Program-made: the position numbers and the translations under genes
Part shown: piece by piece, positions 19,208 through 39,303 of the stretch
Numbering within the stretch: position 1 is the stretch's first letter
How the letters are laid out: every line of letters begins with the position of its first letter
Origin: Gemmatimonadota bacterium
GTDB taxonomy: Bacteria > Latescibacterota > UBA2968 > UBA8231
DNA length: 64,000 nucleotides
Reading direction: 5' to 3'
Assembly: GCA_038153405.1 (NCBI GenBank)
Contig: JAYOYH010000012.1
Span: 1-64,000, forward strand
Notes under the pieces: model-generated
Databases searched by the model: none
Told to the model about the DNA's origin: nothing
The model's input: only the letters and a program-made list of their open reading frames with translations

Positions 19208-19234
19208 GCGTTTACGCTGTCGCATGCATAGGTA

Positions 19235-19672: not shown

Positions 19673-19673
19673 G

Positions 19674-20084
19674 CTATTGCTCCACCGCGTAGGCGACATC
19701 TAACGAGATGGGGTCTACGGCAAAAACGGCCTCGAGGATCGGTACTTCTTCTTCGGTGGACGCGTAGTCGCTCCAATTGCTGAACGCAATAAATAGGGCG
19801 ACGAGGGCCGCCGTTGGAACAAGAGGACGAAACAGCCACAGCAGACCGTCGGTTAAACTCTCGCTCTGTTTGGCGCGCAGGTGCTGAACGACGCGGGCGG
19901 CGAAAAAGGGCCGGAAGGACTGGGGGCGTTCGGCCTGTAGAAGCCCCTGCACGCGTTGAAGGTCGCGCCATTCGGCGCACAGCGCACCGTCTTCCTCTAG
20001 GCGCTGGGCCAGCGAACTGGCCTCCGTTTCGCTCAGTTCACCTGTCAGTGCACGCATCATCATCGTGCGATCGTCACCGTTCAT
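19674..20084 (-). CDS. Putative single-TM anti-sigma factor
   Basis: N-terminal ASD-like LTGELS..E...L...L, an F..RV motif, and one TM helix. Overlaps the sigma stop (ATGA). Confidence 0.75.
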   Translation of the reverse strand: MNGDDRTMMMRALTGELSETEASSLAQRLEEDGALCAEWRDLQRVQGLLQAERPQSFRPFFAARVVQHLRAKQSESLTDGLLWLFRPLVPTAALVALFIAFSNWSDYASTEEEVPILEAVFAVDPISLDVAYAVEQ

Positions 20085-20650
20085 GCGTCATCCACCTCAC
20101 TCTTGAGGATTTCCTGTAGTTTTTTCATGCCGCGCGAAAGGCGCGATAACACCGTGCCCTCCGCCAAGTCTAGCATCTCGGCCGTGTCCCTAGTGGAGTA
20201 GCCTTCCAACATGCGCAGGACCACTACGGCGCGAAACTCTGGGCTGATCTGCTGCAGCGCCGCCTGTACCTCTTCGCGGCGCTCTTGGCCAGCGCGTTCT
20301 TCGCGACCGTCTACGCCAACCTCTTCCGGCGCATTGTGCTCTTCGTCGCGACTCCAAAAGCGCAAGCGCATGCGCTTGCGGCGCTTGATGGCATTGAGCG
20401 ATAGATTGATCGCTATGCGCGTCAGGTAAGTACCCACCGCCGCATCGCCGCGAAATACGTCGAGGGCTTCATAAAATCGAATAAAAACTTCCTGTCCGAC
20501 GTCTTCGGCCTCGGCGCCGGCGCCCAACATCCCCACAACCGTCGCAGCCACTCGACTTTCGTATTGCTCCACCAGTGCGCGAAAGGCTCTTTCATCGCCT
20601 GCTTTAGCGCGAGCGATTCGCTCCGTATCGGTGGCTAGCTGCTCCTCCAT
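20081..20650 (-). CDS. ECF RNA polymerase sigma factor (sigma-70 family)
   Basis: GDERAFRALV, AEDVGQEVF, YLTRIAIN, and region 4 EGYS..DTAEML.L.EGTVLSRLSRG. Start at ATG 20650 or 20656. Confidence 0.95.
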   Translation of the reverse strand: MEEQLATDTERIARAKAGDERAFRALVEQYESRVAATVVGMLGAGAEAEDVGQEVFIRFYEALDVFRGDAAVGTYLTRIAINLSLNAIKRRKRMRLRFWSRDEEHNAPEEVGVDGREERAGQERREEVQAALQQISPEFRAVVVLRMLEGYSTRDTAEMLDLAEGTVLSRLSRGMKKLQEILKSEVDDA

Positions 20651-20656
20651 ATACAT

Positions 20657-23751: not shown

Positions 23752-24984
23752 TCAGTAGGGCCGCACCAAAAGGGGAATTTCCATCTCTGCCGCGGTTAGA
23801 CCACCGTGCGCACCGTAGTGAATTTGCTCGAACTTGCCGCGCTCGTACCACCAGACCGAATGCCCCTCGTGCGGCAGAATCACCAAGTCGCCAATGTGGG
23901 CGCTAAACGCCTCGCTCGGCAGGCCCGGTCCAAACAGGCCGCTCGCCACCAAGTCGGCGCAGCGCAGTACCGATGCCCTGCCACTCAAGCGCATCTCAAA
24001 AAACGCCTGTGCCTCGTCTAACAGCCCTTCTTTGATATAGAGAAACATATCGCGGCACGAACCGGCCGGCACCAGCAACTGGCCGCTGCCGCTGCGGCGC
24101 AGAAAGCGCTCGACGCCGTCGAACTCCGGTTCGATATTGAGGTAGATCGTCGTGCGCGGATCGACCGCGGCCATGCCGTGATCGGCGACTACGATGAGCA
24201 GCGTATCGCCGTCGACGCCCTCGCCAAGCACCTGCTCGGCCGTCGATAGAAAGGCATCGACTTCGGCGTCGATATGCGCTGAGTCGGGCCCCTGCACGTG
24301 CCCCACCTGATCGATGCCATCAAAATAGAAGAAGAAATAAGCCGGATCCGTCTCATCCCGCAGCCGCGCCTTGAGCGAGGTCAGCCCTTCGGCCAGCGTC
24401 CGATAGGGCACGACGTCGGCCCCGTCGTAAGTCAGCCGCGCATAGGGCGATATCAGGTGCAGGGCCGGCTGGAAGGCACACGAGCGAATACCCATTTCCT
24501 CCAGATCGCGGTAGATCGTCTGGGTCGGCAATATTTCTTCGGGCTCTATGTCGACCAGAGCGTTGCGCATCTTGGTTCCCACCGGCGAGAACAGCAGCGG
24601 CGCGATAATTTGATCGACCAGCGGCTCGTAGTACTGCCACTCGTACACACCGCTCTCTATCGGCGGCATGCCCGTGTGAATGCAGGTCACGTGGGCGGCG
24701 GTAGTAGAGGGAAACTGCGCGGTGATTTTTTCGGCGACACCCCCCTCGACAAAGCGGCGCAAAAAGGGGTTATCGCGCAGGCGGGGTTGGCAAAAGCGCC
24801 AACCAAAAGCGTCGATAAAAAGCAGCGCGACTTTCTTCCAGCGCCGGTGGAGCGGGCCGAGCAGTTGGCTCGACAAGCCGGGTCCACCCTGTCCGGTCAA
24901 TACGTGGCGCACGGTCTGCGGGAGGTCGGCAAACGAACGCGTCCCGTACTGCGGCAGAACTACCTCTCTGTCAAACACATGCAC
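23752..24984 (-). CDS. Alkaline-phosphatase-superfamily protein (nucleotide pyrophosphatase/phosphodiesterase-like)
   Basis: IDAFG, FPSTT, DQVGH, ADHG, HGG. Confidence 0.88.
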   Translation of the reverse strand: MHVFDREVVLPQYGTRSFADLPQTVRHVLTGQGGPGLSSQLLGPLHRRWKKVALLFIDAFGWRFCQPRLRDNPFLRRFVEGGVAEKITAQFPSTTAAHVTCIHTGMPPIESGVYEWQYYEPLVDQIIAPLLFSPVGTKMRNALVDIEPEEILPTQTIYRDLEEMGIRSCAFQPALHLISPYARLTYDGADVVPYRTLAEGLTSLKARLRDETDPAYFFFYFDGIDQVGHVQGPDSAHIDAEVDAFLSTAEQVLGEGVDGDTLLIVVADHGMAAVDPRTTIYLNIEPEFDGVERFLRRSGSGQLLVPAGSCRDMFLYIKEGLLDEAQAFFEMRLSGRASVLRCADLVASGLFGPGLPSEAFSAHIGDLVILPHEGHSVWWYERGKFEQIHYGAHGGLTAAEMEIPLLVRPY

Positions 24985-25026: not shown

Positions 25027-26907
25027 TTAATAAACGACGGAAACCGCGCCGGCGCGAGCTCGTCGGCCCACACCGGCATCGACTTCGATGCGGTAGATGT
25101 AGGTGCCGGGCGGCACGCGGTGCCCCCATGCATCGCGGCCGTCCCACACCCGGGCGTGCCGACCGCTCAACTCTTGGGCGGTTTGACCGCGGCGCACCAG
25201 GCGCCCATCGAGGCTGAAGACCTCGAAAGCGACCGGCGCCGGACGCGTCAGCTTGAGCACGTCGTAGGCAATGAGCAGATAGTCGTTGATGCCATCGTCG
25301 TTGGGCGTTAGCAGCGGCGAGGTGCTGGCGATCGAACCGACTAAGGGCGGATCCTCTTGGCGCAGGCGCACCGCCAGGCTGCCGCCGAGGCTGAGCGGAT
25401 CGACATCGCCCTCGCGCGCAAATTGGTACACCGTATCGATCTGCGCGCTGTCGGCGCCCTTGCGCCGGTCGAGCACGCGCACCTGAAACGGCGTGCCGTC
25501 GACAAAGATGGCGGCGCGAAAAAAGAGCTGCACGAAGCTGCCATCCCGCACGACGCGCTGCCACAGATTGACGTCGAAGCCGCTCTCGCGCTCCGTGTCC
25601 GCGGTGAAGACCACGAGCTGGTCGTCGACGCGCACGCTGTCGACGGCAAAGACCTTTGCCGGCGTCTCTACGCTGAGAAAGCGAAACCCCGTCGAACCGC
25701 TTTCGCCGCGTCGCATTTGCATCGACAGCACAAAGGGGGTTTCCACACCAGCGTCGACCTGCAGCGGGCTGATTTCGGCGCGCAGCGCGTCGGCTAGGGG
25801 ACGAGTAGAGTATTCGAAGACCAGGCGTTCCAGCTTGGCGCCGGGTTCCAACAGGCGCACGCGAAATTGGATGTAGCGGTTGGGGCTGGGCGAGCGGATC
25901 AGATCGCCGTCTACCGTTTCCCAACTGCTCCACTCGGGGTTGGGCAGCACGGGCCCCTGTTCGAGGGCGCCGAGAATGCCGTCGATGCCGTCGATGCCCT
26001 CCCATACATCGCGCGACTCGCGCCGCAGTCGCGCGCCCGATTGCACATAGTAGTGCAGCGGTTCCTCGTCGGGACCGGTGCGCGTCTGTAACACCACCGG
26101 CAGGTCTTGCAATCCGACCGCGCCCTCGTGGCGCACTACGCCCCATCCCGGCGTGCCGCTGCTGGCCAGCAGCGGCTGCGATACGAACTCACCGGTCGGC
26201 ACAGTGCCGTCGGCATAGACCTCAATTTCGGCGATTTCCCAGGGCAGGCTATTGAGCGGCACAAAGCGCAAATAGCGCGTTTGGCGCGTGCCCGTGACCT
26301 GGCGCGTGCCGGGCCAGTCGATTATTGCGCGGTAGTTGGGCCGCGTGCGCGAATAGCGTATCAGCTGCGAAAAGTCCTGATCAATAACGACGCGCAGAAA
26401 CTCCAGCGCCGTCTGCCGCTGCCCTAGCCCCAGTTCAAAAGACTGCGGAAACGAATCGACGTGATCGCTGTCCAAACGCGGAAATACGCGGACGCGATTG
26501 ATGCCGAATACGCCGCCCAGATCGACAAAGACCTCCACGTCGCGCTCGACGCCGGCCTCGTCCGGATTAAAGGCGGTTGCCACATCGCCATCGACCAGCG
26601 CTTCGGCTGCACTCGAGTTAAGTATGGTAAACGTATCGGTAAATTCGCCGGGGCCCGTCTGCAGCGGCCGCACGCCGCCCAGATAGGCGCCGCCGCCGCG
26701 CGCAACGGCTAGGGGAGCGATATTCTGGTCTACCGGAGCCGACCACGTCCACACCGAGTCGGCATTCACCTGTACAAAGGCACTGGAGTCCATCACCGCA
26801 TCCCACGGCACGCCGCCGCGGCCAACGACCAGGCGCAGCTGTGCTTCGCTCCACGAGGCCATGCAGCACAGCATCGCGCCAAGCCACAGGAATAAACGCC
26901 GTCTCAT
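25027..26907 (-). CDS. Secreted discoidin-like + C-terminal FlgD-Ig domain protein (paralog C)
   Basis: Signal peptide (SEA-Q); DLGG.F.INRVRVFPR, EIEVY, TRTG, WSSW...SP.RYIQF, TPNDDGIND, WDGRD..G..VPPGTY. Confidence 0.75.
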   Translation of the reverse strand: MRRRLFLWLGAMLCCMASWSEAQLRLVVGRGGVPWDAVMDSSAFVQVNADSVWTWSAPVDQNIAPLAVARGGGAYLGGVRPLQTGPGEFTDTFTILNSSAAEALVDGDVATAFNPDEAGVERDVEVFVDLGGVFGINRVRVFPRLDSDHVDSFPQSFELGLGQRQTALEFLRVVIDQDFSQLIRYSRTRPNYRAIIDWPGTRQVTGTRQTRYLRFVPLNSLPWEIAEIEVYADGTVPTGEFVSQPLLASSGTPGWGVVRHEGAVGLQDLPVVLQTRTGPDEEPLHYYVQSGARLRRESRDVWEGIDGIDGILGALEQGPVLPNPEWSSWETVDGDLIRSPSPNRYIQFRVRLLEPGAKLERLVFEYSTRPLADALRAEISPLQVDAGVETPFVLSMQMRRGESGSTGFRFLSVETPAKVFAVDSVRVDDQLVVFTADTERESGFDVNLWQRVVRDGSFVQLFFRAAIFVDGTPFQVRVLDRRKGADSAQIDTVYQFAREGDVDPLSLGGSLAVRLRQEDPPLVGSIASTSPLLTPNDDGINDYLLIAYDVLKLTRPAPVAFEVFSLDGRLVRRGQTAQELSGRHARVWDGRDAWGHRVPPGTYIYRIEVDAGVGRRARAGAVSVVY

Positions 26908-28460
26908 AGCGCCACCCGAACCTTGGCCTCATCCAGCGCCTGCAGCAGCCCTTCCAACCCATCTTCGTCGAGCGGGTTATCGCGCAGATCAACGGTGACG
27001 AGGGCCTGGAGCTCGAGCAGCACTTCGATACGCCGTATCTGGTTGTCGTTGGCGCGCAAGCGGATCAGCCGATTCAAGCCGCGCAGCGGCGACAGATCAT
27101 CGACCTGATTGAAATCGACGAATAGCAGTTCCAGCGCCGTCAGGCTCGATAAGGCAGATAGGTCGCGCACGCCGTTGCGCGACAGTTCGAGTCCGGTCAG
27201 GTTGACTAGGCCGGCCAGCGGCGAGACGTCTTCTATCCGATTGCGGGAAATATCTAAGGTTTCCAGACTCGTCAGCCGCGCCAGCGGAGACAGGTCCGCA
27301 ATCTGGTTATCGGCTATGTCGAGCAGACGCAGGCGGCGCAGGCCGGCCAGCCCCGAAATATCAACGACCTGGTTGTCGTTCAGCGTCAGCGTCGTCAAAC
27401 GCGTCAGGCGGCGCAGACCAGAAATATCGTTGACCTCGTTGCTAAACAGGCGCAGCGTTTCCAGCAACACCATGTTTTGCAGCGGCGCGACATCGACGAT
27501 GCGATTATTGACCAGCACCAGATCGCGCAGACCGGTCAGGCCGGACAGCGCCGAAATATCGCGCACCGCCGTATTGTTTATCTCCAGGCTCTTCAGCTTT
27601 TTGAGCTCGGCCAGCGGCAGAATGGAAATGATGCCCTCGTCGGCCGACGACGTCGTGCCGCGAATGCTCAGTCGCTCGAGGTTTTCCAACTGCTCCAAGC
27701 CAGTCAGTGAAGCCGTGCGGCCGGGCACGTTGAGCAGCGTAATGGAGCGCAGATCACTCGGCGTTAGATCAGCCGTCGGCTTATCGACGGCGCGGCGCAC
27801 TGCATCTTCTAGACGGGGGTCTTCAAAGGCGATGGCCGGCTCGTAAAAACCTACGTGCAGGATGCGCGCGCGCAGGGCTATTACGTCTTCGCTGGTCAAG
27901 GGGTTACCCGACAGTTCGACGCTCTGCAGACGCCGCAGCGAGGCCAGGGCACCAATGTCGCCCACGGCGTTGTTGTCGATATTGAGCACCTGCAGCAGCA
28001 GCAGCGAGCGCAGCGGCGCGATATCGGTGATCTCGTTGTCATCGAGGTTGAGATGGGTGAGCTGGCGCAGGCCGGACAGCGGCGCGATATCGCGAATGGC
28101 ATTGAGCGAGAGGTCGAGCACTTGCAGGCGCCGCAGCGCCGACAGCGGCGCGATGTCGACGATCTCGTTGTCCGATAGAAAGAGCGCCTCTAGTCCCGCC
28201 AGATCCTCGACCCCCTGCAGCGAAACCACGCCCTCGCCGGACGCAGACAGCGCGCTAAGCGACGCCAGGTCGTCGTCCTGCAGCGCTCCGCCGGGCTGCT
28301 CGAGGACACGGCGCACGGCGCGCTCCAGACCAGCGTCGACAAAGTGCGTGTGCTCATACGCGACATCCTCTACAGCTGGGTCCTGAGCTACCGGTGCGCG
28401 CTCCTGCGCACAGGCGCACAGCACGAGGCACAGCAAGACCCACGACGCGCGCGCAGACAT
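26904..28460 (-). CDS. Internalin-like leucine-rich repeat lipoprotein
   Basis: Lipobox-like LCAC. Two modules, each with an F.D..LE.AVR cap followed by 22-residue LxxLxLxxNxIxDIxPLxxL repeats. Confidence 0.9.
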   Translation of the reverse strand: MSARASWVLLCLVLCACAQERAPVAQDPAVEDVAYEHTHFVDAGLERAVRRVLEQPGGALQDDDLASLSALSASGEGVVSLQGVEDLAGLEALFLSDNEIVDIAPLSALRRLQVLDLSLNAIRDIAPLSGLRQLTHLNLDDNEITDIAPLRSLLLLQVLNIDNNAVGDIGALASLRRLQSVELSGNPLTSEDVIALRARILHVGFYEPAIAFEDPRLEDAVRRAVDKPTADLTPSDLRSITLLNVPGRTASLTGLEQLENLERLSIRGTTSSADEGIISILPLAELKKLKSLEINNTAVRDISALSGLTGLRDLVLVNNRIVDVAPLQNMVLLETLRLFSNEVNDISGLRRLTRLTTLTLNDNQVVDISGLAGLRRLRLLDIADNQIADLSPLARLTSLETLDISRNRIEDVSPLAGLVNLTGLELSRNGVRDLSALSSLTALELLFVDFNQVDDLSPLRGLNRLIRLRANDNQIRRIEVLLELQALVTVDLRDNPLDEDGLEGLLQALDEAKVRVAL

Positions 28461-31096
28461 TAGCGCTCTACTCCGGCGTAGACGGTGAGAAATCCGCGCG
28501 TGCGCGTGCGCGTGCCCTCAACTTCAAAATGGCGCCGCGTCATATCAAAGCCCAACACCGTCGTCAGTCGATAGCCCTGATAGTCGGATATATTGGTCAG
28601 CTGCGCGACGATCGTCGTCTCGTAAAAGGAATCCTCATAGCCCGGTGGCGTCGGGTTGCGCAGTTGGCTAAAGCGATGGTGTTCGACGCCGCCCTCGACG
28701 TAGGAACTAAGAAAAACCGGCAAGCGCGACATGAGGATAAAGATTTCGCTGAGTTCGCGACGGTGCGGCGCACGGCGATCGATGGGCGACTCGCGGCGAA
28801 ACTCGCTCTTCCAGGCGGGAATCAGCGTCAGGCGGCCTAGCTGCACGCGGTATTCTGCCTTGTTGATCAGACCGAGGAAATAGCCCTCGTCGCGCTGGTT
28901 GCGCAGCTCCAATTGGATGCCGTCATCGCGCTGGTGATACCACTGCCACTTAAAGACATTCTTCAGTTTTAACGCCGAAAAGCGCGTTAGATCGAGTCCG
29001 AGCCAGGTCGTGTTGATGACGGTATTGCGCGCCGGCAGGGCATCGCGCTGAGGCAGCAACTCGCCGCGCGAGTTGGGCAACTGCACCCACTGCAGTAAGT
29101 CGTCTTCTATGTCGTCTTCTACCTGGCGTAGATCTTGAAAAAAGCGCACGCGCGCCCAGCGGAACGGGTGGTCGGCCGTCACGATGGCGTAGTCGGCCCG
29201 GCTCTGTCCATCGTCGGCTATTTCGCGTAGGCGTTGACGACCCAGCGTCAGGCGCACATCGGGCAGCAGAAATACACCGCCGTACACATTGTACCCGCGG
29301 CGATCGCGGCGGTAGGGATAATCGGCTTCCTCGTCGTTTTCAAAGCGATCAACCGTGCCGTTGTGGTTCATATCGATGCCGTATTGATACTCTGGACGAT
29401 CGGTGTGAAAGCGCAGAAAGGGCTCGTCGTAGTCGGGCACTCGGTTGGGGCTAGCCGGGCTGTCGTTCTGATTGAAGTCGGATATGAAGTCGTTGTTCTC
29501 GTCCCATCCAGGAAAGACTTCGACGTCGCCGGAAGTAAAGCCGCTGCGCTCCCAGTCGGGAAAGCGATCCTGGTCGTCGTTATCGTCGACAAACTCGAAG
29601 TAGCGAAAGTTGGAGCCGTAGTCTACGACGCCGTTCTGATCGACCACGTGCAGTCCGGTGCGATAGTTGGGCCCGGTGCGAAACGCCTCGAGAAAGCCGA
29701 AGTAGGGATAGCTTTGCTTGGACGCATTGAACATCCAGGCCAGCGCTTCGTCGCCGCCGACGTGGTGCTTTTGCAGTGCTGGATTGGGATATTGCCGATA
29801 CTGGTTGTTGACGTTGATCTCAAAATAGGCGTCCAGCCCTTCGAGATCGGTCATCTCCACCGTGAAGCCGGCAAGTTGGTTGGCCGTCGGCAGGCCGTAG
29901 TCGATGGCCAGCACGCGCTGGTTGGACGAATCCTTGACGTTGCCCGCCGCGCGAGCGACGGGTATGAAGACGACGTTGCCCTGAACGTTGTTCTGGCGAT
30001 CGGAAGCCATCTCGACTCGGTAGTCATTGGCCAGCACCAATTCGATCTGCACGCGTTTGATCTCACCCGGATCGGGGCCGGTATAGGAGCGATCCTGCAG
30101 GTCGTAGCGCAGCGCGATGGTCTCACTACCGTCGGCCGACAGGTAGCCGCGGCGCTGAAAGCCACCTTCGACAAGCGGGCGAAAGCCTATTTCCGATCCG
30201 CGCGTCTGCCGACCCTGCGTATCCCATATGACGATATCGTGCGCAAAGAGCGCGCCGCCGGCTTCGCCGTCTTCCGGCGAGTCGTCGCCGATCAGCACTT
30301 CAATCAGCGTCACGTGGGCCAGGTTTTGCTCACCCGTCAGATTGCCCTTGAGAATATTGCCGTTAAATACCTCGGTCTGCGTTTGCGCGTGGTGCGCGTT
30401 GACAAAGGTGCCGCCTACTTTGACAAAATCGCCGACCTGCATCTCGACCCGTCCGCCGAGCAGGCTGGTGTTATTCGATGTTTCGGAGCCGCCGGTATTG
30501 CTGATGCGCGACAGCAGCAGCGTCGCGGCGTACTTGTCGGACTGGAAGTCCCACTGGATGCCGTCAAAGCGCGGCTTGGAAAACGTCATCGGCGTCAGCG
30601 TTGTGCGCAGTTCGTTGCCAATGGTGATGGCGTAGTGGAACTGTCCCTTGTGATCGGAGGCGATCAGCAGATTGGAAAACCAGCCGCCAAAGCGCCCATC
30701 CTTGGTCAGCAGCGAGCCAAAGGGCTGTGGGTTTTGCTGGCGCCAGTCGAATACCAGCCAACCGCGCGTCAGCAAATTGCCATACGCGTCGTAGATGTAG
30801 TTGCCTTCTAGCGTCGTCGACACGTAGCGCTGGTAATTCTCGCGCGCGTAGTTGGAGTATTCCCACTGCCGCCAGTTGAACTCGTTGTAGAGCTCCTGCG
30901 GCACGTACCACTTGCGCACACTCGGATCCAGCGCGTCGAACAGCACGCCCGACCCCGTCGGCTCCCACGACACCTTGCCGCCGCGCTTTACGTTGCCCAA
31001 ACGCGCACCGTAGTCCTGCGCCCACAGCGGCGCGAACGCCACCAATAAGATGAACGCTGCGGCCAGCGCTCCTGACGTGTATGGTCTCTTTTGCAA
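28460..31096 (-). CDS. Large secreted, putative outer-membrane beta-barrel protein (paralog 2)
   Basis: Probable TTG start at 31096 with signal peptide (LWA-Q), amphipathic beta-strands, and Asp-rich loops. Colinear similarity to 34037-36781. Confidence 0.6.
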   Translation of the reverse strand: MQKRPYTSGALAAAFILLVAFAPLWAQDYGARLGNVKRGGKVSWEPTGSGVLFDALDPSVRKWYVPQELYNEFNWRQWEYSNYARENYQRYVSTTLEGNYIYDAYGNLLTRGWLVFDWRQQNPQPFGSLLTKDGRFGGWFSNLLIASDHKGQFHYAITIGNELRTTLTPMTFSKPRFDGIQWDFQSDKYAATLLLSRISNTGGSETSNNTSLLGGRVEMQVGDFVKVGGTFVNAHHAQTQTEVFNGNILKGNLTGEQNLAHVTLIEVLIGDDSPEDGEAGGALFAHDIVIWDTQGRQTRGSEIGFRPLVEGGFQRRGYLSADGSETIALRYDLQDRSYTGPDPGEIKRVQIELVLANDYRVEMASDRQNNVQGNVVFIPVARAAGNVKDSSNQRVLAIDYGLPTANQLAGFTVEMTDLEGLDAYFEINVNNQYRQYPNPALQKHHVGGDEALAWMFNASKQSYPYFGFLEAFRTGPNYRTGLHVVDQNGVVDYGSNFRYFEFVDDNDDQDRFPDWERSGFTSGDVEVFPGWDENNDFISDFNQNDSPASPNRVPDYDEPFLRFHTDRPEYQYGIDMNHNGTVDRFENDEEADYPYRRDRRGYNVYGGVFLLPDVRLTLGRQRLREIADDGQSRADYAIVTADHPFRWARVRFFQDLRQVEDDIEDDLLQWVQLPNSRGELLPQRDALPARNTVINTTWLGLDLTRFSALKLKNVFKWQWYHQRDDGIQLELRNQRDEGYFLGLINKAEYRVQLGRLTLIPAWKSEFRRESPIDRRAPHRRELSEIFILMSRLPVFLSSYVEGGVEHHRFSQLRNPTPPGYEDSFYETTIVAQLTNISDYQGYRLTTVLGFDMTRRHFEVEGTRTRTRGFLTVYAGVER

Positions 31097-31103
31097 AATC
31101 GGC

Positions 31104-32102
31104 CTAGTGCAGCGCCACGCGCTGCCCCGTGCGCGACGACTCCAGTGCCGCCGCGATAATGCGCAGCGTGCCCGCCGCGCTGCCGGCTTCGGCCAGCAGG
31201 GGCGCACCGCTGAGCGCGCAATCGTTAAAGTGTTCGATAGCCGGCGTGAAGGGACGCGTTCCCGTTGCAAAAGAAAACTCCTCCTCCTCTTCCCCCTTAT
31301 ATACTGTGAAGTGGCTTTCTTCTGCCGGATGGCAGGGCACGGGCACGGCGATGTGACCTTGGGTGCCAAATAGGTGTGCGCCCTGCCCAACGGGTGCGTC
31401 AAAGCCGGAGACTAACGCGGCCTGCCGACCAGCGCCAAAATCCAGCACCGTGCTAGTGCGCGTGTCGACGCCGTAATCTGCATCGATGCAGCACTGTGCC
31501 TGTACGGCAATGGGTTCGCAGCCGAAGACGTAGCGCGCGAAGGTGATTGGATAGCAGCCGACGTCCATGAGACTGCCGCCGGCCAGCGCCTTGTTCATGC
31601 GAATATTGTCCGTCGGTCGCTCCAGCGAAAAGCTAAAATGCGCCTGCACCTGCACGATCTGGCCGATAATGCCTTCGTCGAGCAGGGCGCGCAGTTTGAG
31701 AGTCTGTGGGTGGCAGCGAAAGACAAAGGCCTCGAAGAGCAGCACGCCGCTGTCCCGACAGGCCTGCACCATCTGTTCAACTTCGTCTGCGTTGGCCGCC
31801 AGCGGCTTTTCGCAGAACACGTGCTTGCCGCGCCGTGCCGCCGCGATGGTCCACTCGGCGTGCATGGAATTGGGCAGCGGATTGTAGACGGCATCGATCG
31901 CATCGCTGTCCAACATGGCCTCGTAGCTATCAAAGACCTGCGGTATCCCGTGTTTTTCGGCAAAGGCCTGCCCCTTGCTGCGATCGCGGCTGCTCACGGC
32001 AACCAATTCGCCGCCCTTAGCCATCCTGAATGCGGGTATAAATCCCCAGTCGGAAATACCCGCCGTGCTGATAATGCCCCATCGCAGTGTGTTATTGGTC
32101 AT
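31104..32102 (-). CDS. Gfo/Idh/MocA family oxidoreductase
   Basis: LRWGIIST, DAVYNPLPN..H, HVFCEKP, GGSLMDVGCY. Confidence 0.93.
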   Translation of the reverse strand: MTNNTLRWGIISTAGISDWGFIPAFRMAKGGELVAVSSRDRSKGQAFAEKHGIPQVFDSYEAMLDSDAIDAVYNPLPNSMHAEWTIAAARRGKHVFCEKPLAANADEVEQMVQACRDSGVLLFEAFVFRCHPQTLKLRALLDEGIIGQIVQVQAHFSFSLERPTDNIRMNKALAGGSLMDVGCYPITFARYVFGCEPIAVQAQCCIDADYGVDTRTSTVLDFGAGRQAALVSGFDAPVGQGAHLFGTQGHIAVPVPCHPAEESHFTVYKGEEEEEFSFATGTRPFTPAIEHFNDCALSGAPLLAEAGSAAGTLRIIAAALESSRTGQRVALH

Positions 32103-32141
32103 GGCAATCTCCTCTCCGTTTCTATCTAATTGTTCGCCGCA

Positions 32142-34040
32142 TCAGTAGGCAATGGCCAGCGTGCCCATGTGCCGCTCTTCAAAGGCGTTGGCACGCACCC
32201 GCAGCACCCAGACGTAGGTACCCGGCAGCAGGCGCATGCCGTCCAACGTGCCGTCCCAGGCCAGCTGCACTGGACCAATGCCGCGCTCTTCGTCGAGCAG
32301 CGCACCGAGTCGGCGTCCAGCCAAGTCGTAAATTTCTAATTGCACGGGGGCTGGACGCGTGAGTTGCAGCACGTTGAAAAAGACGTCCCAAGCGTCGTTG
32401 ACCCCATCGCCATTGGGCGTAAAAGTGCGCGTATCTATGGCGATATCGCCGACTAATTTGCCGATCTGCGGCTTGGGAATAGCCACCGACAGGCCCGATA
32501 ATTCGGCGATATCAGCCGGCTCGAACTGCACCGCGTCACCCGGCGTAAAGGCCTGCGGCACCTCGGGCGCGCGGCTGGTGTAGGCGCGACCGGAAAAGGT
32601 CGTGCCAAAGCGAAAAATTGGCAGATCAAAGGTCAGTTCGAGCAGTGCACCCTCGTCGCGCACCTGGGCAAAACTGATGCCGAAGCCATCGCTCTCGATA
32701 AAGTCGACGTTATATTCATAGGGCTCGCCGTTGAGCTTGACCTCGCGCACGGCCGATGCGGCAACGCCCGTATCGACTTCTATGCGGTCGAAGCCGCGCA
32801 CGGCACCGCCAACCTGAAACAGGCGCACAGCGTAGCGAAACGTAGCCGCTTTTTCCGCTTCGGCTAGGCGCGGAAAAACTTCGGCCACTAGGCGCCCGGC
32901 AATCGGCGGCTGGATATAGGCAAAGGACATCTCGTCGACGCGACGCGCGGCAAAGAGGTCGCCGTTAAACTCGAACTGAAACTGCACGTAGCGACGCGGA
33001 TTGGGCGCGGCGATTAAATCGCCGTTGCTGGCGGCAAACCACGGGCTCCAGCGGTCCGTATCCTCGACAATACCGCCGCGCGACGTGGGCACGAGTTCGG
33101 CGTATTCCTGGCGCGTCACCTCGACATAGGTTCCCTCGCCCGGCAAGACGCCTGGAATAAACTCGCGAAAGACCAGCGGCGTGTCGTCTAAGCCGGTGCG
33201 CACGCGCACAGATAGCGACGAAAACTCGGGCGTGCCCAGCGCATCCTCAACCCAGTCCACCGCGCCGATCGCCGCGCGGTCACCCATATCGATGATGTCG
33301 GTATAGTAGGCGCCGCGGCGCAAAAAACCCGTGCCGTAGACTTCGACTTCGTCAATTTCAAAGGGCTGGTCGACCAGCGACTTTATTTTGACGTAGCGCG
33401 CATACTGCGACGGCACTTCGATATCGACGATCGGCTCTTCGTTCTCCGCATCGCGCGCCACCAAGACGTCGGGCGTGGTAAAGCTGTCGAGCGCCTCGTT
33501 GATCCACACTTCGTAGCCGCGCAGAAAGTCGTTGTGAAAAGGAGCCGACGGCGTCTCAACCACCGTGTTGCGCGGATAGAAGCGCACGCGCGATACGCCG
33601 ACGGGCGAGCCAAAGTCGAGAATCAGCCAGATGCCGCGCGTCGTCACGCGCGGCTCAAAGAGCGTTGGCTTGCGCTCGAAGGCGAGTTCGTGATCGCCGT
33701 TTACCACACCCTCGAGCTGGGACGGCGGAATGCGGCCCGACGTCGGCGCGGTGACCTTGCCGCTGACCAATACGCGCGCGGCAATATTCTCGCTTTCGTC
33801 AAAGCGCAGCGGCGCGATCCAACCCGGACTATAGTCGTAGTCGATGCTGCCATCGGGCGAGTTGGTCCGTTCGACCTCTCCGCTAAACGAATTGAGTACA
33901 AAGACCGGATCGGTGCCCAGACCACCGCCGCGCCAAGGGCGGACCGGCCCCCCGAGGACAAAGGTCTGGGCCGGCTGTGCTACCGCACCGACGGTGCACC
34001 CTAGCAGCGCCAACCACGCTATCAGCTGCATGCGTCTCAT
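32142..34040 (-). CDS. Secreted discoidin-like + FlgD-Ig domain protein (paralog B)
   Basis: ATG 34040 overlaps the upstream stop. Signal peptide (AVA-Q); DFG.PVGVSRVRFYPR, EVEVYG, VRTG, WSPW...PRRYVQF, FTPNGDGVND, WDG...PGTY. Confidence 0.75.
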   Translation of the reverse strand: MRRMQLIAWLALLGCTVGAVAQPAQTFVLGGPVRPWRGGGLGTDPVFVLNSFSGEVERTNSPDGSIDYDYSPGWIAPLRFDESENIAARVLVSGKVTAPTSGRIPPSQLEGVVNGDHELAFERKPTLFEPRVTTRGIWLILDFGSPVGVSRVRFYPRNTVVETPSAPFHNDFLRGYEVWINEALDSFTTPDVLVARDAENEEPIVDIEVPSQYARYVKIKSLVDQPFEIDEVEVYGTGFLRRGAYYTDIIDMGDRAAIGAVDWVEDALGTPEFSSLSVRVRTGLDDTPLVFREFIPGVLPGEGTYVEVTRQEYAELVPTSRGGIVEDTDRWSPWFAASNGDLIAAPNPRRYVQFQFEFNGDLFAARRVDEMSFAYIQPPIAGRLVAEVFPRLAEAEKAATFRYAVRLFQVGGAVRGFDRIEVDTGVAASAVREVKLNGEPYEYNVDFIESDGFGISFAQVRDEGALLELTFDLPIFRFGTTFSGRAYTSRAPEVPQAFTPGDAVQFEPADIAELSGLSVAIPKPQIGKLVGDIAIDTRTFTPNGDGVNDAWDVFFNVLQLTRPAPVQLEIYDLAGRRLGALLDEERGIGPVQLAWDGTLDGMRLLPGTYVWVLRVRANAFEERHMGTLAIAY

Positions 34041-36781
34041 TGATTTAACCCCGCCGTCACCGTCATAAAGACCGTGCTGGCATCCTGGCGCTGGGCCCCT
34101 TTGAGACTGCGCCGCTGAAGCTGTGCCCCAGTGCGCGTAACAATCTGGTAGCCCTGATAGGCCGTTTGGTTGCGCAGCTGCACTACACCGGTCCACGACG
34201 TGGCGTCGCGTTCAGCGCCTGGGCGCATGCCTTCGAGCAGCCACAGGCGGCCTGCTTCAATGCCTATCTGCAGTTCGGTGCTAAAGAGCTGACGGCCGTA
34301 TTTGGGGAAGTAGCTGACGCCGATACTCTCGGCCAACAGCGGCTGGGTCCACATGAGAATGGCCAGCTGTTCGACGCTTTCCGAAGCCGGCAGGCGGCGG
34401 CTAAAGGGCCGTTCGCGCCGGTACTCGCTCTTCCAGCGCGGCTCCAGAACGCCCAAGCCGATGGGTATGCTCCACTCCGCCTTGTTGATCACGCCGACGA
34501 AAAAGCTGGTCTTGCGCCCTTCGCGCTGGCGCGTCGCTTCGGCCGTTTCGCGCTGTTGAGACCAGTCCCACTTTACGCGGTGAAAGAGCCGCACGCCGCG
34601 ACCTAGACGCTGGTCCACGTCGGCGTAGAGCGCATTTTTCCACGCGTCTAGGCCGGGCAGAACATCGCGCACGTCGATCATGCGCCCGGGCGCATCGAGC
34701 GGCTGCACCCACTGGCGCAGGTCGTCTGCTATATCGTCCTCGACGCGCGCCCCGTGCGCGGCCAAGCGCAGGCGTCCTCCGCGACCCAGCGCGTGTGCCA
34801 GCGTCGCCATGTAATAGTGCGAGCGCGTGCGACCATCGCCGGATAGGAGGCGCATATCCTGACGACCCCATACCCATTTTAGCCCGGGTATGATATCTAC
34901 CTGCACAAAGGCATTATAACCGCTGTGGTCCTTTTTGTAGGGGTAGTCCGGCAAAATGTCGTTCTCAAAACGATCTATCGTGCCGTTGTGGTTCATGTCG
35001 AGGCCAAAGAGAAATTCCGGCCGGTCGGAGCGATAGCGCAGAAAGGGCTCTTCGTAGTCGGGCAGTAAATTGCCGTTTTGGTTGTAATCGTTGAGGAAGT
35101 CGCCGTTTTCATCCAGGCCCGGCCAGGCAATCTCGCGCCGATCGGATTGGATCGTGCCGGCGCGCTGCGCCGCGTCGCTGCCCCAGTTGACAAAGAACGG
35201 ACGCTGCCATTCGGTTAGCCCGTTGAGATCGTCGTCGTCATCGACGAACTCGTAGAGCTGCGGTATCGGATTCTTATAGCGGATGCGCCCGCTCTGGTCG
35301 CTGATCCAATAATTGGTGCTGTAGTCGTCTTCAATGGAGAATAGTTCGGCAAAGAGCGTCCACGCGCCGCGCCGATACTGCGCGTCGAGATAGGAGGCCG
35401 ACGAGAGGTCGGCGCGCTCATAATGATCGGAAATAGCCGGATTGGGATAGCGGAAAAAACGGCGATTAAGCACGAACTCACCCTGCAGCGACAGGCCGCC
35501 CCAGTCCACGAGGTTCCAGTCGACGCCGATGAGTTCGCTGGCCGTCGGCAGCCCGTAGTCGAGGTGCACGACGCGGGTATTGCTGTTGTCCTGCACGTTT
35601 CCGCCCGAGCGCTCAACGGGCAGGAAAACAATTTCGGCATTGCGCGTCTGACCGTCGGTCTGCAGGTCCGATGCCATTTCAATGCGGTAGTCATTGGCCA
35701 CCGAGAGCTCGACGGTCACTCGGCGCAAATCGTCCGACTGGATGTCGTCAAAGTCCAAGCTGCCCAGGTCGTATTCGAGTAGGATACCCTCCTCGTCGCG
35801 CGCAAATAGGCGCCCACCCTGCACGATGCCACCCTCGACGGTCGGCAAGAAGCCGATGTCGCGCCCGCGCAGTTGGCGTCCGCTGGTGTCGACGAGCACG
35901 ATATCAAAACCGGCCAGCGCCGCGCCAACGGCGCCGCGCCCCGGCGAGTCGTCGCGCACGCGCACCCACAGCTTATCGAGCGGCTGATTCTGGCGCGCAG
36001 TGAGAATGCCGTGCAGCGGATTGCCCTCGTCAAATTGGACCTGTGTCAGCACGTTGTGCGCATTGACATAGGTCAGTCCCAGCGTCGTCTGGGCACCGAA
36101 CTGCGCTTCGACGTGGCCGCCCATGACCGTCGTCGAGTTGGTCTGCGCCTCTTCGTCGGGATTGCTCGGCCGCGAGAGCAGCACTGTGCTGCTGTAGCGC
36201 TCGGCCGCATAGTCGAGCCGCACGCCGTTAAAGCGCGGCTTGTAAAAAGTTAGCGGCGTAAAACGAGTAAAGATCTCATCGCCAATCATCAAGCGATAGG
36301 CGCCGGCGCCGCGCTGGTCCGATGCAATGACTAAGCGGCTAAAAAAATCGCGATAGGCCGGTCGCTGATCGCCCATCAGGCGCAGGCTCGACAAGCCTCC
36401 CAGATTCTTGTCCACCACGCTGCCGCGCGGTCCGGGCTGCTCCTGCGTCCAGCTGTAGACGAGCCAACCGCGTCCCAGCGGATTGCCAAAGGTATCGTAG
36501 GATTCTTCTCCTTCGAGCAGGCGGCTGAGATAGCGCGCATAGCCATCGCGCGCATAGTTGCTCTGCTGTGCATACCAAGGACTCATATAGGTCTCGGGCA
36601 AGTAGCGCGGCTCGTACCACTTGTGCAGGGCCGGCGAGACATAGTCCAACTCAAACGCCTCACCGTAGGGATTGATCGTGGCCGTGCCCCAGCGCCGCGG
36701 ATCGACTTCGCGCCCCTGGCCCCAGGCTGTCGCGCAGAGGACGAGCAGCCACAGCACGCTATGCAAGCACACGCCGTTCAA
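34037..36781 (-). CDS. Large secreted, putative outer-membrane beta-barrel protein (paralog 1)
   Basis: Signal peptide (AWG-Q). Shares KWY.P, GWLV..W.Q, TP.TF.KPRF.G, YEFVDD.DD, PG.DEN.DF..D.NQN, DMNHNGT.DRFEND and INKAE with paralog 2. Confidence 0.6.
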   Translation of the reverse strand: MNGVCLHSVLWLLVLCATAWGQGREVDPRRWGTATINPYGEAFELDYVSPALHKWYEPRYLPETYMSPWYAQQSNYARDGYARYLSRLLEGEESYDTFGNPLGRGWLVYSWTQEQPGPRGSVVDKNLGGLSSLRLMGDQRPAYRDFFSRLVIASDQRGAGAYRLMIGDEIFTRFTPLTFYKPRFNGVRLDYAAERYSSTVLLSRPSNPDEEAQTNSTTVMGGHVEAQFGAQTTLGLTYVNAHNVLTQVQFDEGNPLHGILTARQNQPLDKLWVRVRDDSPGRGAVGAALAGFDIVLVDTSGRQLRGRDIGFLPTVEGGIVQGGRLFARDEEGILLEYDLGSLDFDDIQSDDLRRVTVELSVANDYRIEMASDLQTDGQTRNAEIVFLPVERSGGNVQDNSNTRVVHLDYGLPTASELIGVDWNLVDWGGLSLQGEFVLNRRFFRYPNPAISDHYERADLSSASYLDAQYRRGAWTLFAELFSIEDDYSTNYWISDQSGRIRYKNPIPQLYEFVDDDDDLNGLTEWQRPFFVNWGSDAAQRAGTIQSDRREIAWPGLDENGDFLNDYNQNGNLLPDYEEPFLRYRSDRPEFLFGLDMNHNGTIDRFENDILPDYPYKKDHSGYNAFVQVDIIPGLKWVWGRQDMRLLSGDGRTRSHYYMATLAHALGRGGRLRLAAHGARVEDDIADDLRQWVQPLDAPGRMIDVRDVLPGLDAWKNALYADVDQRLGRGVRLFHRVKWDWSQQRETAEATRQREGRKTSFFVGVINKAEWSIPIGLGVLEPRWKSEYRRERPFSRRLPASESVEQLAILMWTQPLLAESIGVSYFPKYGRQLFSTELQIGIEAGRLWLLEGMRPGAERDATSWTGVVQLRNQTAYQGYQIVTRTGAQLQRRSLKGAQRQDASTVFMTVTAGLNQ

Positions 36782-39303
36782 TAGACCACGTGTATCAGGC
36801 GCACGACCTGCGTACCCTCCGCTGCGCTATCGGTGCCAAAGCGCACCTGTACCGCGTAAATGCCCGGGTGGACGAGCGCGCCGCGTTCATCGCGCCCATC
36901 CCATGCGACGACGTGCTCGCCGCTGGGGCGCACGCGCCGCGTCGATAGGTCGCGCACCCGATGCCCTGACAGGTCAAAAATCCCGATGCCGAGCTCTTTT
37001 TCACCCTCCACATGATAGACCGACAGCTCGATGGATACCCGGTCGTTGATGCCGTCGTCGTTGGGCGTAAACACATTGGGGTTCACCACTACGTCGCGCA
37101 GCAGCTGCGTATCTTCTAAATCGGATACGACGACCAGCGTCTGCGACGAAACCAGCGCACTGGCGTCGCCGCTGCTAACGCGCTGCACGCGCCCGGGCCG
37201 CGTCTGCCGCTCGAGCTCGACGCTAAACACCGTGCTCTGCAGAAATACCTTGGTTCTGAACTTCAGCTCATAGATCTGGTTGCCCCTCAGCACGGGGCTG
37301 GGAAAGCGCAGGGCCACCGCCCCATCGGCATCTCGCTCGTCCTGCAGCACGCCCGGCCACAGGTCGCTCCCTCCTCCCAAGCGCAGCGCGGCATCGGCGC
37401 CTGCGCGCACCGAGACCAATTCGATGTGCACGTCCGACGACGAGCGCAGGCGCATCAGATCAAAGCCCGGATTGCCGCTGGCAAACTGCGGTTTCACATA
37501 TAGGATGAACTCGCGCTCGATGCCCGGCTCTACCTGCCAAATAGGCCAGATCTCGCCCAGCACGTTGTCGACGAGCGGCGGCTCAAAGTTGAGCTGCAGC
37601 GAACGGATGCGCGCAGCGCGCAGCGGCTCGCGCGAAACTAGTCGCACTTCGACCTGTGCATAGCCGCGCGGACTGGGCGACTTAAAGTCGACGCCCGAGC
37701 CCTCGTACATCTCGCTCCAACTGCTCCAATCGGGTCCCGCGCGCTCCTCAATGACGACGGCTGGACGGCGGCTCTCTGGAATCAGCTCCCACAGCGTCTT
37801 GGATATCTCGCGGCCGGTGATGGCAAAGTAGTGTGGAATTTCTTCGATCTGCTCACCGGTGCGGGTGCGCACCTCGATACGCGTGCCCGGCGGCGCATCG
37901 CCATCCCATTCTATCGTGGTAAAAAGGCGCGGCCGATTGAGGCGAATAAAGGGCGAGACCATCGCCACTTCCGAGACGTAGCCCTCGCCAAAGGCCTGCA
38001 CCTCGCTGAGTTCGCCGCTCTCTTCGCCCGTATTGCTGAATTCGAGGCGACGCACCTCGATGTAGCGCACTTCGCGCGTGCTGAACAACTCCTCGACGTG
38101 CTGATAGCCGCTCAGATTCTGGCGCTCGCCCAGCGAAGTCCACACTTGTTCGCCGTTGGCGCTAAACGCCCCGTCGGATATGCGCAGCTGATAAGCCGGC
38201 GGCGGTCCCTCCGGCATCAGCAGCTTGATGCGGTTGAGCCAGTACTTGGCACCCAGATCGAGCACCAGTTGGTTCTCGTCGGTCACCGGATCGTAAATGC
38301 GCATGGGAAAGGCCGAGCTGTAGAGACCGTCGGTGTAAATGCGAAAAAAGAGAAATTCGAACCCGCTCTCGCCGGCGCCCAACTCGCGCTCGCTCTGCGT
38401 GAGTTGCACGATATTTTCCCCCAGCGAATAGACCTCGACCTCGGCCAGGCGCGGGCGTTCGTGGCGGTAGTAGCGCACGGGGCCGCGCTCCGCTTCGGCC
38501 AGCGCGCTCCACACCTCTTCGCCAATGAGTATTTCGCGACCGGCAGGCGTGACGCGGAAATAGTCGACGGCGCCCTGGTCTTCTTCGGGCAGCAGCGCAT
38601 AGTCGGCGTTCGACACTTCTTCGGCGCGCGGTCCGTCCGTGTCGAGCACATCGATGCGCAGGTACTGCATCACCTCGCCGACGATGCCCTCCGGCACGGG
38701 GCGCTGCGGTTCGATATCAAAGACGTATTCGCGCTGGTCTTTGTTGGGCTGCGTCTCCAATCCAACGCGATAGAAGCGCCGACGCTGCTCTTCGCCAAAG
38801 CGCTGGCCGTCCGAGGCGACTACGCGAAACTTCAAGAAGGGATCGCCCTGTTCCCTGTCTACAAAGCGCAACACCACTCGGTGAGCCACTACGGCACGGC
38901 CCAGATCGACCTCGATAAACCAGTTGTCGATCGGCGTATCGCGCAGCGGCTCCCAATACGTCAGCGCGTCGCCGTCGAGCACCAGCGGACCGTCGAGCAC
39001 GTTGCTGCCGGCCTCGTGCACGCCGCCCTGCAGCGTGTCGTTGGACACAAAGGGATTGACGTAGACAAAGCGCTCTGCGTCGAGCGAGACGTTGATATCG
39101 CTGCGCAGAAAGCGCGGCTCTACCGCACCGTCATCGCCGAGAACTTGCACGCCGGGCGGCGTTTTCCACAGCTGCCAATCTTCGGCCCGATCGATGCGCA
39201 CCTGCGTGGATAGCAGTCGATAGCCCAAGGAATCTTGCGCACTGGCGGCCTTAAGTAAACAGAGGGCGCACAAGAGCGTGCATCGCACGGAAAAAGAGAG
39301 CAA
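36778..39303 (-). CDS. Secreted protein with two discoidin-like domains + FlgD-Ig (paralog A)
   Basis: Signal peptide (ASA-Q); DLGR...RVVL and DLGA...NRI, EVEVY/EVQAFG, TRTG, WSSWS...SP..Y.Q, FTPNDDGIND, WDGRD..G..V.PG.Y. Confidence 0.75.
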   Translation of the reverse strand: MLSFSVRCTLLCALCLLKAASAQDSLGYRLLSTQVRIDRAEDWQLWKTPPGVQVLGDDGAVEPRFLRSDINVSLDAERFVYVNPFVSNDTLQGGVHEAGSNVLDGPLVLDGDALTYWEPLRDTPIDNWFIEVDLGRAVVAHRVVLRFVDREQGDPFLKFRVVASDGQRFGEEQRRRFYRVGLETQPNKDQREYVFDIEPQRPVPEGIVGEVMQYLRIDVLDTDGPRAEEVSNADYALLPEEDQGAVDYFRVTPAGREILIGEEVWSALAEAERGPVRYYRHERPRLAEVEVYSLGENIVQLTQSERELGAGESGFEFLFFRIYTDGLYSSAFPMRIYDPVTDENQLVLDLGAKYWLNRIKLLMPEGPPPAYQLRISDGAFSANGEQVWTSLGERQNLSGYQHVEELFSTREVRYIEVRRLEFSNTGEESGELSEVQAFGEGYVSEVAMVSPFIRLNRPRLFTTIEWDGDAPPGTRIEVRTRTGEQIEEIPHYFAITGREISKTLWELIPESRRPAVVIEERAGPDWSSWSEMYEGSGVDFKSPSPRGYAQVEVRLVSREPLRAARIRSLQLNFEPPLVDNVLGEIWPIWQVEPGIEREFILYVKPQFASGNPGFDLMRLRSSSDVHIELVSVRAGADAALRLGGGSDLWPGVLQDERDADGAVALRFPSPVLRGNQIYELKFRTKVFLQSTVFSVELERQTRPGRVQRVSSGDASALVSSQTLVVVSDLEDTQLLRDVVVNPNVFTPNDDGINDRVSIELSVYHVEGEKELGIGIFDLSGHRVRDLSTRRVRPSGEHVVAWDGRDERGALVHPGIYAVQVRFGTDSAAEGTQVVRLIHVVY

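Follow-up and report, generated by a model that had tools for sequence, protein, structure and literature searches.

Introduction

Type B substrates of Bacteroidota type IX secretion systems (T9SS) depend on a PorP/SprF shuttle that is usually encoded directly downstream of them (PMC12618676, PMC9143113), and one shuttle is described as serving three orphan cargos (PMC12618676). In the present study we describe an operon of a Latescibacterota bacterium in which secreted proteins with a tail of this kind (cargos A to C) are encoded together with two paralogous proteins of about 900 amino acids (aa), here called giant barrels. It lies in the window, the 64,000-nucleotide stretch of DNA that was analysed, on contig C12 of genome G000, which is 4.86 Mb in size, 93% complete and from an uncultured organism. 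Labels with C refer to contigs of this genome, and labels with G, L and f to genomes, loci and families. A first-pass annotation had read the operon as an analogous but distinct system in which each cargo docks on or leaves through a dedicated large outer-membrane partner, or alternatively as a receptor and surface-lectin uptake unit resembling SusC/SusD.

Known energised import across the outer membrane is the work of TonB-dependent barrels with a plug domain. SusC/SusD systems with TonB-ExbBD combine large paralogous barrels, co-encoded non-catalytic sugar-binding surface proteins, a 5:2-type proton motor and a single-helix, His-bearing transducer. The Agl-Glt machinery of Myxococcus comprises one TolQ-like and two TolR-like subunits, tetratricopeptide repeat (TPR) proteins, an AgmX/PglI domain, several outer-membrane barrels and a surface adhesin. 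The ushers FimD and PapC have 24 strands and export folded immunoglobulin (Ig) domains. A TonB/TolA-like layout of transmembrane helix, linker and globular domain has been described for other transducers (PMC12204202).

The operon is likely a satellite copy of a Latescibacterota outer-membrane module, one of many copies; this module likely serves, in a manner not yet described, either to capture and import complex sugars or to display adhesive proteins. A full-text search of mainly non-subscription literature listed no publication on such a system.

Results

Organisation of the operon

Seven open reading frames (ORFs) make up the operon, all on the minus strand and in the order given by the first-pass annotation:

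36778..39303, minus strand: cargo A, 841 aa; signal peptide, F5/8-type (CBM32-like) domain(s), Ig-like domains and a type-B-like tail ending HVVY
34037..36781, minus strand: giant barrel 1, 914 aa; carries a signal peptide, matches no Pfam or NCBIfam family and is a paralog of barrel 2
32142..34040, minus strand: cargo B, 632 aa counted from the ATG that yields a signal peptide; architecture as in cargo A, tail ending AIAY
31104..32102, minus strand: Gfo/Idh/MocA oxidoreductase; recent insertion, outside the module
about 28460..31096, minus strand: giant barrel 2, 878 aa from an inferred TTG start codon; predicted outer-membrane beta-barrel of about 24 strands
26904..28460, minus strand: leucine-rich-repeat (LRR) lipoprotein, 518 aa; accessory member of this module sub-type
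25027..26907, minus strand: cargo C, 626 aa; split N-terminal beta-sandwich with an inserted CBM32-fold domain, Ig-like domain, tail ending SVVY

The gaps between successive genes are -4, -4, 39, 7, -1 and -4 bases. Stop and start codons thus mostly overlap, as had been claimed (4 of 6 junctions), and both non-overlapping junctions flank the oxidoreductase. For comparison we used the best 80 of 575 confirmed loci from GTDB genomes; these are kin, and counts taken from them are not independent. Among them, L033 (97% identical) alone has the oxidoreductase in the interval from cargo B to barrel 2; L034 (91% identical) and the remaining loci lack it there. Because it interrupts the operon only in this closest relative, the oxidoreductase is a recent insertion and not a member of the module; the proposed seven-gene unit keeps its order and loses this gene. 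Paralogs of the LRR lipoprotein touch a cargo gene in 4 of 5 cases.

A gene for a phosphodiesterase/nucleotide pyrophosphatase (window 23752-24984, minus strand) begins 42 bases past cargo C. It may be co-transcribed with the operon, since such a gene also lies 3' of the operon in L033, L034, L035 and L038. Two RNA runs contained short contigs with full identity to both barrels, to cargos A and B and to the oxidoreductase, at shares of 0.07-0.08 for which DNA carry-over is possible. A promoter and terminator scan gave signals at chance level.

Two linked gene families

Profile searches of all ORFs recovered 23 barrel paralogs (22 of full length) and 53 cargo paralogs, which together occupy 180 kb, or 3.7% of the genome. 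The pairing of the two exceeds chance, since 21 of the 23 barrels have a cargo within three genes, compared with 154 of 4142 for all non-cargo genes; the cargo is directly upstream of 15 of the 23. Of 110 full-length barrels in the related loci, 98 have a cargo directly upstream, 7 a further barrel, 3 a contig end, 1 the oxidoreductase and 1 something else; a cargo lies directly downstream of 44 of the 110. Within the phylum the barrel was found in 95 of 151 genomes and the cargo in 94, these being the same genomes except for G044 (68% complete). Both families are present in all 63 sampled genomes of the host's family, and neither was detected in the 51 genomes of families f2, f3 and f4. The linkage of the two families, for which the first-pass annotation had suggested counts of paralogs and adjacency, extends from this genome across the phylum.

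The claim of a dedicated large partner for every cargo is not supported as it stands: there are 53 cargos to 23 barrels, and in G003 a single cargo was detected (7 of 41 candidates scored) against 14 full-length barrels. Solo barrels occur in L117, in L118 and on C19. The identities of barrels and of their upstream cargos correlate (96 pairs; Spearman 0.84 for the whole protein, 0.58 for the tail), as is expected from duplication of whole operons alone.

The barrel profile reached 449 clusters at 50% identity (E up to 1e-30). Named homologs are hypothetical proteins of Candidatus Latescibacterota, Handelsmanbacteria or 'Gemmatimonadota', and one locus (L075) is labelled Planctomycetota. The most distant branch (P0511) has two short contigs as its context. 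In L129 (843-2243), a reverse-transcriptase-like ORF with a YADD motif, presumably of the group II intron type, immediately precedes a distant barrel homolog. Joining contigs C85 and C10 into one locus was rejected: their ends are only 83% identical and do not belong to the same gene.

Predicted fold of the giant barrels

Barrels 1 and 2 are 38% identical over 921 columns, and neither matches a Pfam family (E up to 0.1) or an NCBIfam family (E up to 1). In a quick tree (46 rows, C60 fragment left out) both belong to a clade of 17 members that is distinct from the C7/C34 type. An AlphaFold2 model of barrel 2 from 140 sequences (pLDDT 85.1, pTM 0.82; residues 1-70 poorly predicted) folds into a beta-barrel with approximately 24 strands, counted from the secondary-structure string, of which strand 1 is short. 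This model supports the identification of the large proteins as outer-membrane barrels, a prediction of the first-pass annotation that could have failed here. Two large inserts interrupt the barrel:

29894..30382, minus strand: barrel 2 insert 1, 163 residues; predicted beta-sandwich between strands 7 and 8 on the long-loop (outer) side, with a conserved DDSP motif
29303..29674, minus strand: barrel 2 insert 2, 124 residues; acidic loop between strands 11 and 12

Each of the 11 gaps that follow an even strand spans 2-6 residues, and the long loops and both inserts come after odd strands. The C-terminus of such barrels is usually periplasmic; if this holds here, both inserts would face outward. 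Insert 2 (30 D/E vs 10 K/R) is the best-conserved part of the barrel family, with Asp/Asn motifs kept in 21-22 of the 22 full-length paralogs, and from the motifs DxNDxD, PGxDxNxD and GxDxNxN we infer that it may bind calcium.

Fold searches with barrel 2, including the Foldseek comparison recommended in the first-pass annotation, returned outer-membrane barrels and so bear out the fold; many families are tied and no specific relative stands out. The best Z score (13.9) belongs to FhaC, with a root-mean-square deviation (rmsd) of 11.1 over 256 aligned residues. FhuA, of the TonB-receptor barrel fold, scores Z 13.2 (rmsd 5.4, 268 aligned) and is tied with unrelated barrels; PorV (6h3i_F) scores Z 10.3, and FimD and PapC are among the generic matches. 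The top Foldseek match is SlpA (8agd_A, E 1e-7), which also gives the longest VIA alignment (7zgx_A, Z 12.1, rmsd 6.8, 422 aligned). SlpA_C (PF21620) matches 10 of 52 family representatives over ∼90-130 residues each, the best at E 2e-7 and 30.2 bits, under the cut-off of 35; its two matches in this genome are both barrel paralogs. We regard the similarity to SlpA as a weak lead.

A profile of 85 barrel sequences found no barrel among PDB sequences, SlpA included. In the ESM Atlas the barrel gave 30 matches without a common family, the nearest named cluster being DUF6029 at 0.88, under the lead threshold, and the beta-sandwich insert of barrel 2 gave no usable match. Neither giant barrel matches the PorP/SprF models PF11751 and TIGR03519, and their 878 and 914 aa compare with ∼300 residues for PorP/SprF (TIGR03519 has 292 positions). 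Neither matches the plug domain PF07715, and none of the 10 TonB-receptor plug matches in the genome is a barrel paralog. The SLH Pfam domain was not found in the barrels, nor a long helix (coiled-coil stalk) in the model.

Cargo proteins and their tails

The colinear motifs listed for the three cargos proved invariant in a three-way alignment (D.G..R, E..E, RTG, WS.W, P.P..Y.Q, E..P, TPN.DG.ND, WDG, PG and a terminal Y). All three have a signal peptide of the non-lipoprotein type, read from the sequence. Cargo A matches F5_F8_type_C_2 (30.5 bits) and FlgD_ig (28.1 bits), both above cut-off. For Pfam CHU_C (PF13585, cut-off 27), cargo B scores 30.7, cargo C 30.4 and cargo A 26.8 bits; none reaches the cut-off of 35 for TIGR04131, with cargo B at 32.8 bits and the others at 19.0 and 17.3. 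The structure model of cargo C (pLDDT 92.0) contains an Ig-like domain (YcnI, Z 11.6) and two further regions:

26197..26736, minus strand: CBM32/F5-8 type C domain of cargo C, mature residues 36-215 (4a42_B, Z 14.6, rmsd 2.4, 126 aligned)
25030..25356, minus strand: C-terminal tail of cargo C, mature residues 496-604, with the fold of the PorU C-terminal domain (CTD; 6za2_B, Z 12.0, rmsd 2.6, 100 aligned)

Sequence profiles agree with the modelled CBM32/F5-8 domain. Profile and fold searches detected no catalytic domain in the cargos, and the SusD family domain found no match in them. The cargos are secreted proteins of the CBM32 fold, predicted to bind sugars. A DGDxxT-like motif occurs in 37 of 50.

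Two disjoint tail classes occur in the genome: 52 complete cargos with the consensus TPNGDGxND...VAY, and at least 45 proteins with YPNPFN...KM.L(R/K), a set chosen by its ending among weak profile matches, so that 45 is a lower bound. TPNxDGxND is found in 47 of the 52 cargos and in none of the 45 type-A-like proteins, and PNPxN in 38 of the 45 and none of the 52; one type-A-like protein that was scanned passes TIGR04183. These patterns support a type-B-like class of cargo tail, separate from the type-A-like tails, and the two classes mirror the type A/type B split of the Bacteroidota T9SS. Apparent cargo-barrel fusions, seen as long open frames in six relatives, were rejected as run-on frames in GC-rich DNA.

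A third secreted class, ∼300 aa in length and with weak likeness to CBM9, has a short terminal (S/T)WGxIK tail that may be another sorting signal. It has 11 called genes in G000 (among others C4:130047-130979, C6:120382-121338, C7:72465-73442, C10:1555-2496, C10:39174-40166 and C79:4858-5727), six of them within 1 kb of a barrel or cargo gene, and accompanies barrels in G003, G006 and G009 too. In L063, a tandem run of about eight CBM9-like profile matches lies upstream of a cargo-barrel pair.

T9SS components

A search for T9SS core genes, which the first-pass annotation had called for, found sprA, porV and porU. GldL/PorL, GldM/PorM and GldN/PorN gave no match in this 93% complete genome, nor in any control genome, GldK/PorK being outside the search; PF11751 likewise had no match in the genome and none in its control. 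SprA is present in 146 of the 151 phylum genomes, including all 51 of families f2-f4 and nearly all barrel-positive genomes. G015 (96% complete, 60 contigs) has a core locus, PorU and CTD proteins and no SprA match with two models, which reflects either an assembly gap or a T9SS without SprA. A second PorU-like protein with a CTD (1858 aa; C48:5701-11277 in G000) scores 256 bits, under cut-off.

Core loci with a motor

In five distant genomes of four other families a core locus recurs, with a cargo, a small PorV/PorP-like barrel (∼310 aa), one to three giant barrels and a giant TPR protein (∼1090 aa, with an N-terminal hydrophobic helix followed by TPRs). ExbB followed by two ExbD genes is present in four of the five and DUF4159 in two; a small lipoprotein and a membrane-anchored DUF4159 protein are encoded near the motor genes. 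G000 has core loci on two contigs (C7, C34) and a motor locus on a third (C85). Barrels are tied to the same motor genes in L065, in L138 and on C7 and C34, and those of L138 and L065 are of the window type; G009 keeps motor and small barrels in a separate locus. Three barrels stand in tandem at C34, in G015 and in G001. Of four ExbB-profile matches in the genome, three are beside a giant TPR gene. In L116 (6320-7516), the module's small lipoprotein is fused to an AgmX/PglI C-terminal domain, above cut-off; no Glt family model scored above cut-off in the core proteins scanned.

Because the small barrel follows the cargo directly in six core loci, it is a better candidate than the giant barrel for an SprF-like shuttle. 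All eight small barrels scanned match NF033709 at 33-84 bits (cut-off 90), and four of them match TIGR03519 weakly. Window-type modules mostly lack it.

The DUF4159 protein has one N-terminal membrane helix, which carries a His in 8 of 9 rows (five of the rows being G003 paralogs), and continues as an extended Lys/Arg/Pro linker. Of the 12 strongest DUF4159 paralogs in G003, 11 adjoin a barrel gene. One lineage thus shows barrels duplicating along with cargos and another along with the transducer, a pattern most simply accounted for if the barrel is the constant part of an energised receptor.

The giant TPR was found in 73 of 151 genomes. Its apparent absence from f6, f9, f11 and f12 was discarded as an artefact of threshold and scoring; G009 (f6) and G016 (f9) hold the motor locus. 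In the 51 genomes of f2-f4, all with SprA, neither giant TPR nor barrel was detected, and the ExbBD/TPR motor is therefore not the general T9SS motor.

On C17 (1-14946; L145), a TonB-receptor-like gene, a CTD protein ending HFAILR and a PorV-like barrel are followed by an inner-membrane trio (an FtsX-type protein, a DUF6785 protein and one more membrane protein) that also stands after giant barrels on C60 and C7. DUF6785/DUF6784 membrane proteins have 21 copies in G000 (e.g. C7:93324-95228) and are near several barrel loci in other genomes. Of six FtsX-M28 genes, two lie within 12 kb of a barrel and one near a TonB-receptor-like gene.

Other genes of the window

Elsewhere in the window, all on the minus strand, lie a 1091-aa protein with a weak heparinase II/III C-terminal match, a PfkB kinase and a 613-aa protein without clear family (2212-8361; possibly a sugar-use cluster), a 711-aa protein with two DUF1538 stretches (13124-15259), a UmuD-like S24 peptidase and UmuC-like IMS polymerase pair (15596-17487), and an ECF-type sigma factor followed by small genes and an LTXXQ (Spy/CpxP-like) protein (18406-20656).

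Discussion

We tentatively prefer to read the module as an energised surface receptor or channel with T9SS-delivered lectin lids, which captures and imports glycans. Sec would take the cargos across the inner membrane and SprA across the outer one, after which the small PorV/PorP-like barrel of a core locus would collect them. Remaining uncleaved, they would dock as a lid on the cognate giant barrel encoded after them, in the manner of SusD on SusC. The calcium-stabilised acidic loop and the beta-sandwich insert would close the barrel, and the ExbBD motor of an unlinked core locus would open it through a TonB-like DUF4159 arm and the TPR scaffold. In such a machine the barrel would be constant, the transducer would supply force and the surface proteins specificity, and paralog expansion would create a repertoire of ligand specificities. 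That the output is glycan import we infer from three features: the CBM32 fold of the cargos, the repertoire of paralogs and the scarcity of classical TonB receptors (10 plug matches to 23 giant barrels).

The barrel-linked ExbB/ExbD, TPR and DUF4159 genes favour the SusC/SusD-like alternative of the first-pass annotation, and the plug and SusD domains proper to such systems were not found. The triad on C17 (TonB-receptor-like gene, CTD protein, PorV-like barrel) follows the same gene logic with a classical receptor. More guardedly, the giant barrel could belong to a proton-motor-driven, ∼24-stranded, calcium-gated transporter class unrelated to TonB-dependent receptors, in which a DUF4159-headed TonB analogue would open the barrel and T9SS-delivered lectins would cap it: an equivalent of SusC/SusD that was built separately.

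Several observations weigh against an energised importer. Motor, transducer and small barrel are all missing from the window operon itself. Cassettes carry chaperone-type genes (peptidyl-prolyl isomerase (PPIase) lipoproteins, TPR, ASPIC/UnbV) and not the glycoside hydrolases or regulators of polysaccharide utilisation loci, and DUF6785/FtsX genes show no clear enrichment near barrels (within 10 kb of 4 of 23, vs 340 of 4195 for all genes). The Pfam scan showed no TonB-receptor plug family in the giant barrel. The Arg after DLG...P (PR motif), which we take to be a sugar-contact residue, is found by pattern in only 15 of 50 cargos, the DUF4159 protein of C34 lacks the helix His, and the ExbB profile was built from core-locus ExbBs, so that divergent motors may be missed.

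The main rival, which we consider unlikely, has the giant barrel replace PorP/SprF as an anchor or shuttle: the cargo would leave SprA onto the downstream barrel and be displayed as an adhesin, without import. The prevalence of cargos upstream of barrels (98 of 110, with 44 downstream) reproduces the order known for type B cargos and PorP/SprF (PMC12618676), and the correlated identities, the lack of a PF11751 match in the genome (shared with its control) and the scarcity of small barrels in window-type modules all fit. However, the core loci already hold a small PorV/PorP-like barrel straight after the cargo, G003 has many barrels to its one detected cargo, some barrels stand alone, duplication of whole operons would by itself produce the correlation, and an anchor has no obvious need of a ∼24-stranded pore or a motor. 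The giant barrel is therefore probably not a simple PorP/SprF substitute.

Next in rank, and improbable, is an SprA-independent translocon for VxY-tailed (perhaps also WGxIK-tailed) proteins, in which the small barrel would be the counterpart of PorV, the PPIase lipoprotein that of PPI and the TPR protein that of SprE, with ExbBD in place of GldLM. It would suit a pore in the usher size class, the short first strand, PPIase lipoproteins that co-expand with the cassettes, and the failure to find GldL, GldM and GldN (or to find them in controls), and also G015 (96% complete), which has the core locus and PorU and no SprA match. Yet G015 is a single draft in 60 contigs, SprA accompanies nearly all barrels and is also present in every f2-f4 genome, where neither barrel nor giant TPR was detected, and a translocon is usually single-copy, against 23 barrels here.

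Slightly less probable again is an Agl-Glt-like motility or focal-adhesion machine, in which an ExbB and two-ExbD motor would move a platform of up to three barrels carrying T9SS-delivered adhesins. The ExbB-ExbD-ExbD order of four core loci, the giant TPR, the tandem triplets of barrels and the AgmX/PglI C-terminal domain recall that machinery, but no Glt model passed its cut-off among the core proteins scanned, and tens of divergent barrel paralogs suit a receptor repertoire better than a single motility engine.

A structural envelope scaffold related to Deinococcus SlpA, with the cargos as a proteinaceous coat, is very improbable: SlpA heads the Foldseek matches and gives the longest VIA alignment, SlpA_C matches below cut-off are confined in this genome to barrel paralogs and the SlpA pore has metal-binding inserts (PMC9388160), but its Z score is tied with those of many unrelated barrels, SLH domain and coiled-coil stalk are missing, ∼24 predicted strands stand against 30, and the link to ExbBD is left unexplained.

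If the energised-receptor reading is right, a second barrel family on the ExbBD motor, reached through a different transducer, would widen the list of trans-envelope machines. It would also provide an outer-membrane target for the non-canonical force transducers that, according to PMC12204202, still await discovery, and would place a T9SS-type sorting tail with new partners outside Bacteroidota. Given the 180 kb they occupy and their presence in all 63 sampled family genomes, the barrel and cargo families probably rank among the main surface features of an uncultured group that is widespread.

Comparison with known systems

Tested against the PorP/SprF, TonB-dependent receptor and SlpA families, the giant barrel qualifies for none. 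The idea of an analogous but distinct system is supported in its predicted barrel fold, type-B-like tail and gene linkage, and no described counterpart was found; the dedicated partner for each cargo is not supported as proposed.

With T9SS type B and PorP/SprF pairs (SprB-SprF, Fjoh_3952-Fjoh_3951, PG1035-PorP; PMC12618676, PMC9143113) the module shares the signal peptide, the TPNxDGxND tail and a barrel gene directly downstream, together with a separate type-A-like class with PorV and PorU, SprA and orphan cargos. It differs in that the downstream barrel is ∼880 aa without a PorP/SprF family match, the tail ends in VxY and stays under the TIGR04131 cut-off, GldL/M/N were not found (nor in controls), and core loci add ExbBD, a giant TPR and DUF4159.

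Deinococcus SlpA/OmpM (PMC9388160) has in common with the giant barrel its very large size, metal-binding inserts (putative here) and a weak local profile similarity; the giant barrel has no SLH domain or coiled coil, fewer predicted strands and another gene context. Compared with Agl-Glt, no Glt family passes the cut-off here, and by the searches done the barrels and adhesins are unrelated.

The giant barrels, cargos and ExbBD/DUF4159 can be likened to SusC/SusD with TonB-ExbBD. Here, however, the barrels have neither plug nor TonB-receptor barrel family, the lids are T9SS-tagged and not lipoproteins, the transducer ends in DUF4159 and the loci are not rich in hydrolases.

The vWA-headed force transducers encoded beside TPR-tolQ-tolR-tolR (PMC12204202) share with the core loci a TPR protein, ExbB/TolQ, paired ExbD/TolR and a His-bearing transducer of transmembrane helix, linker and globular domain; the available text of that paper contains neither 'latesci' nor 'DUF'. 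In the Latescibacterota module the head is DUF4159 and not vWA, and giant barrel, small barrel and cargo are co-encoded with the motor.

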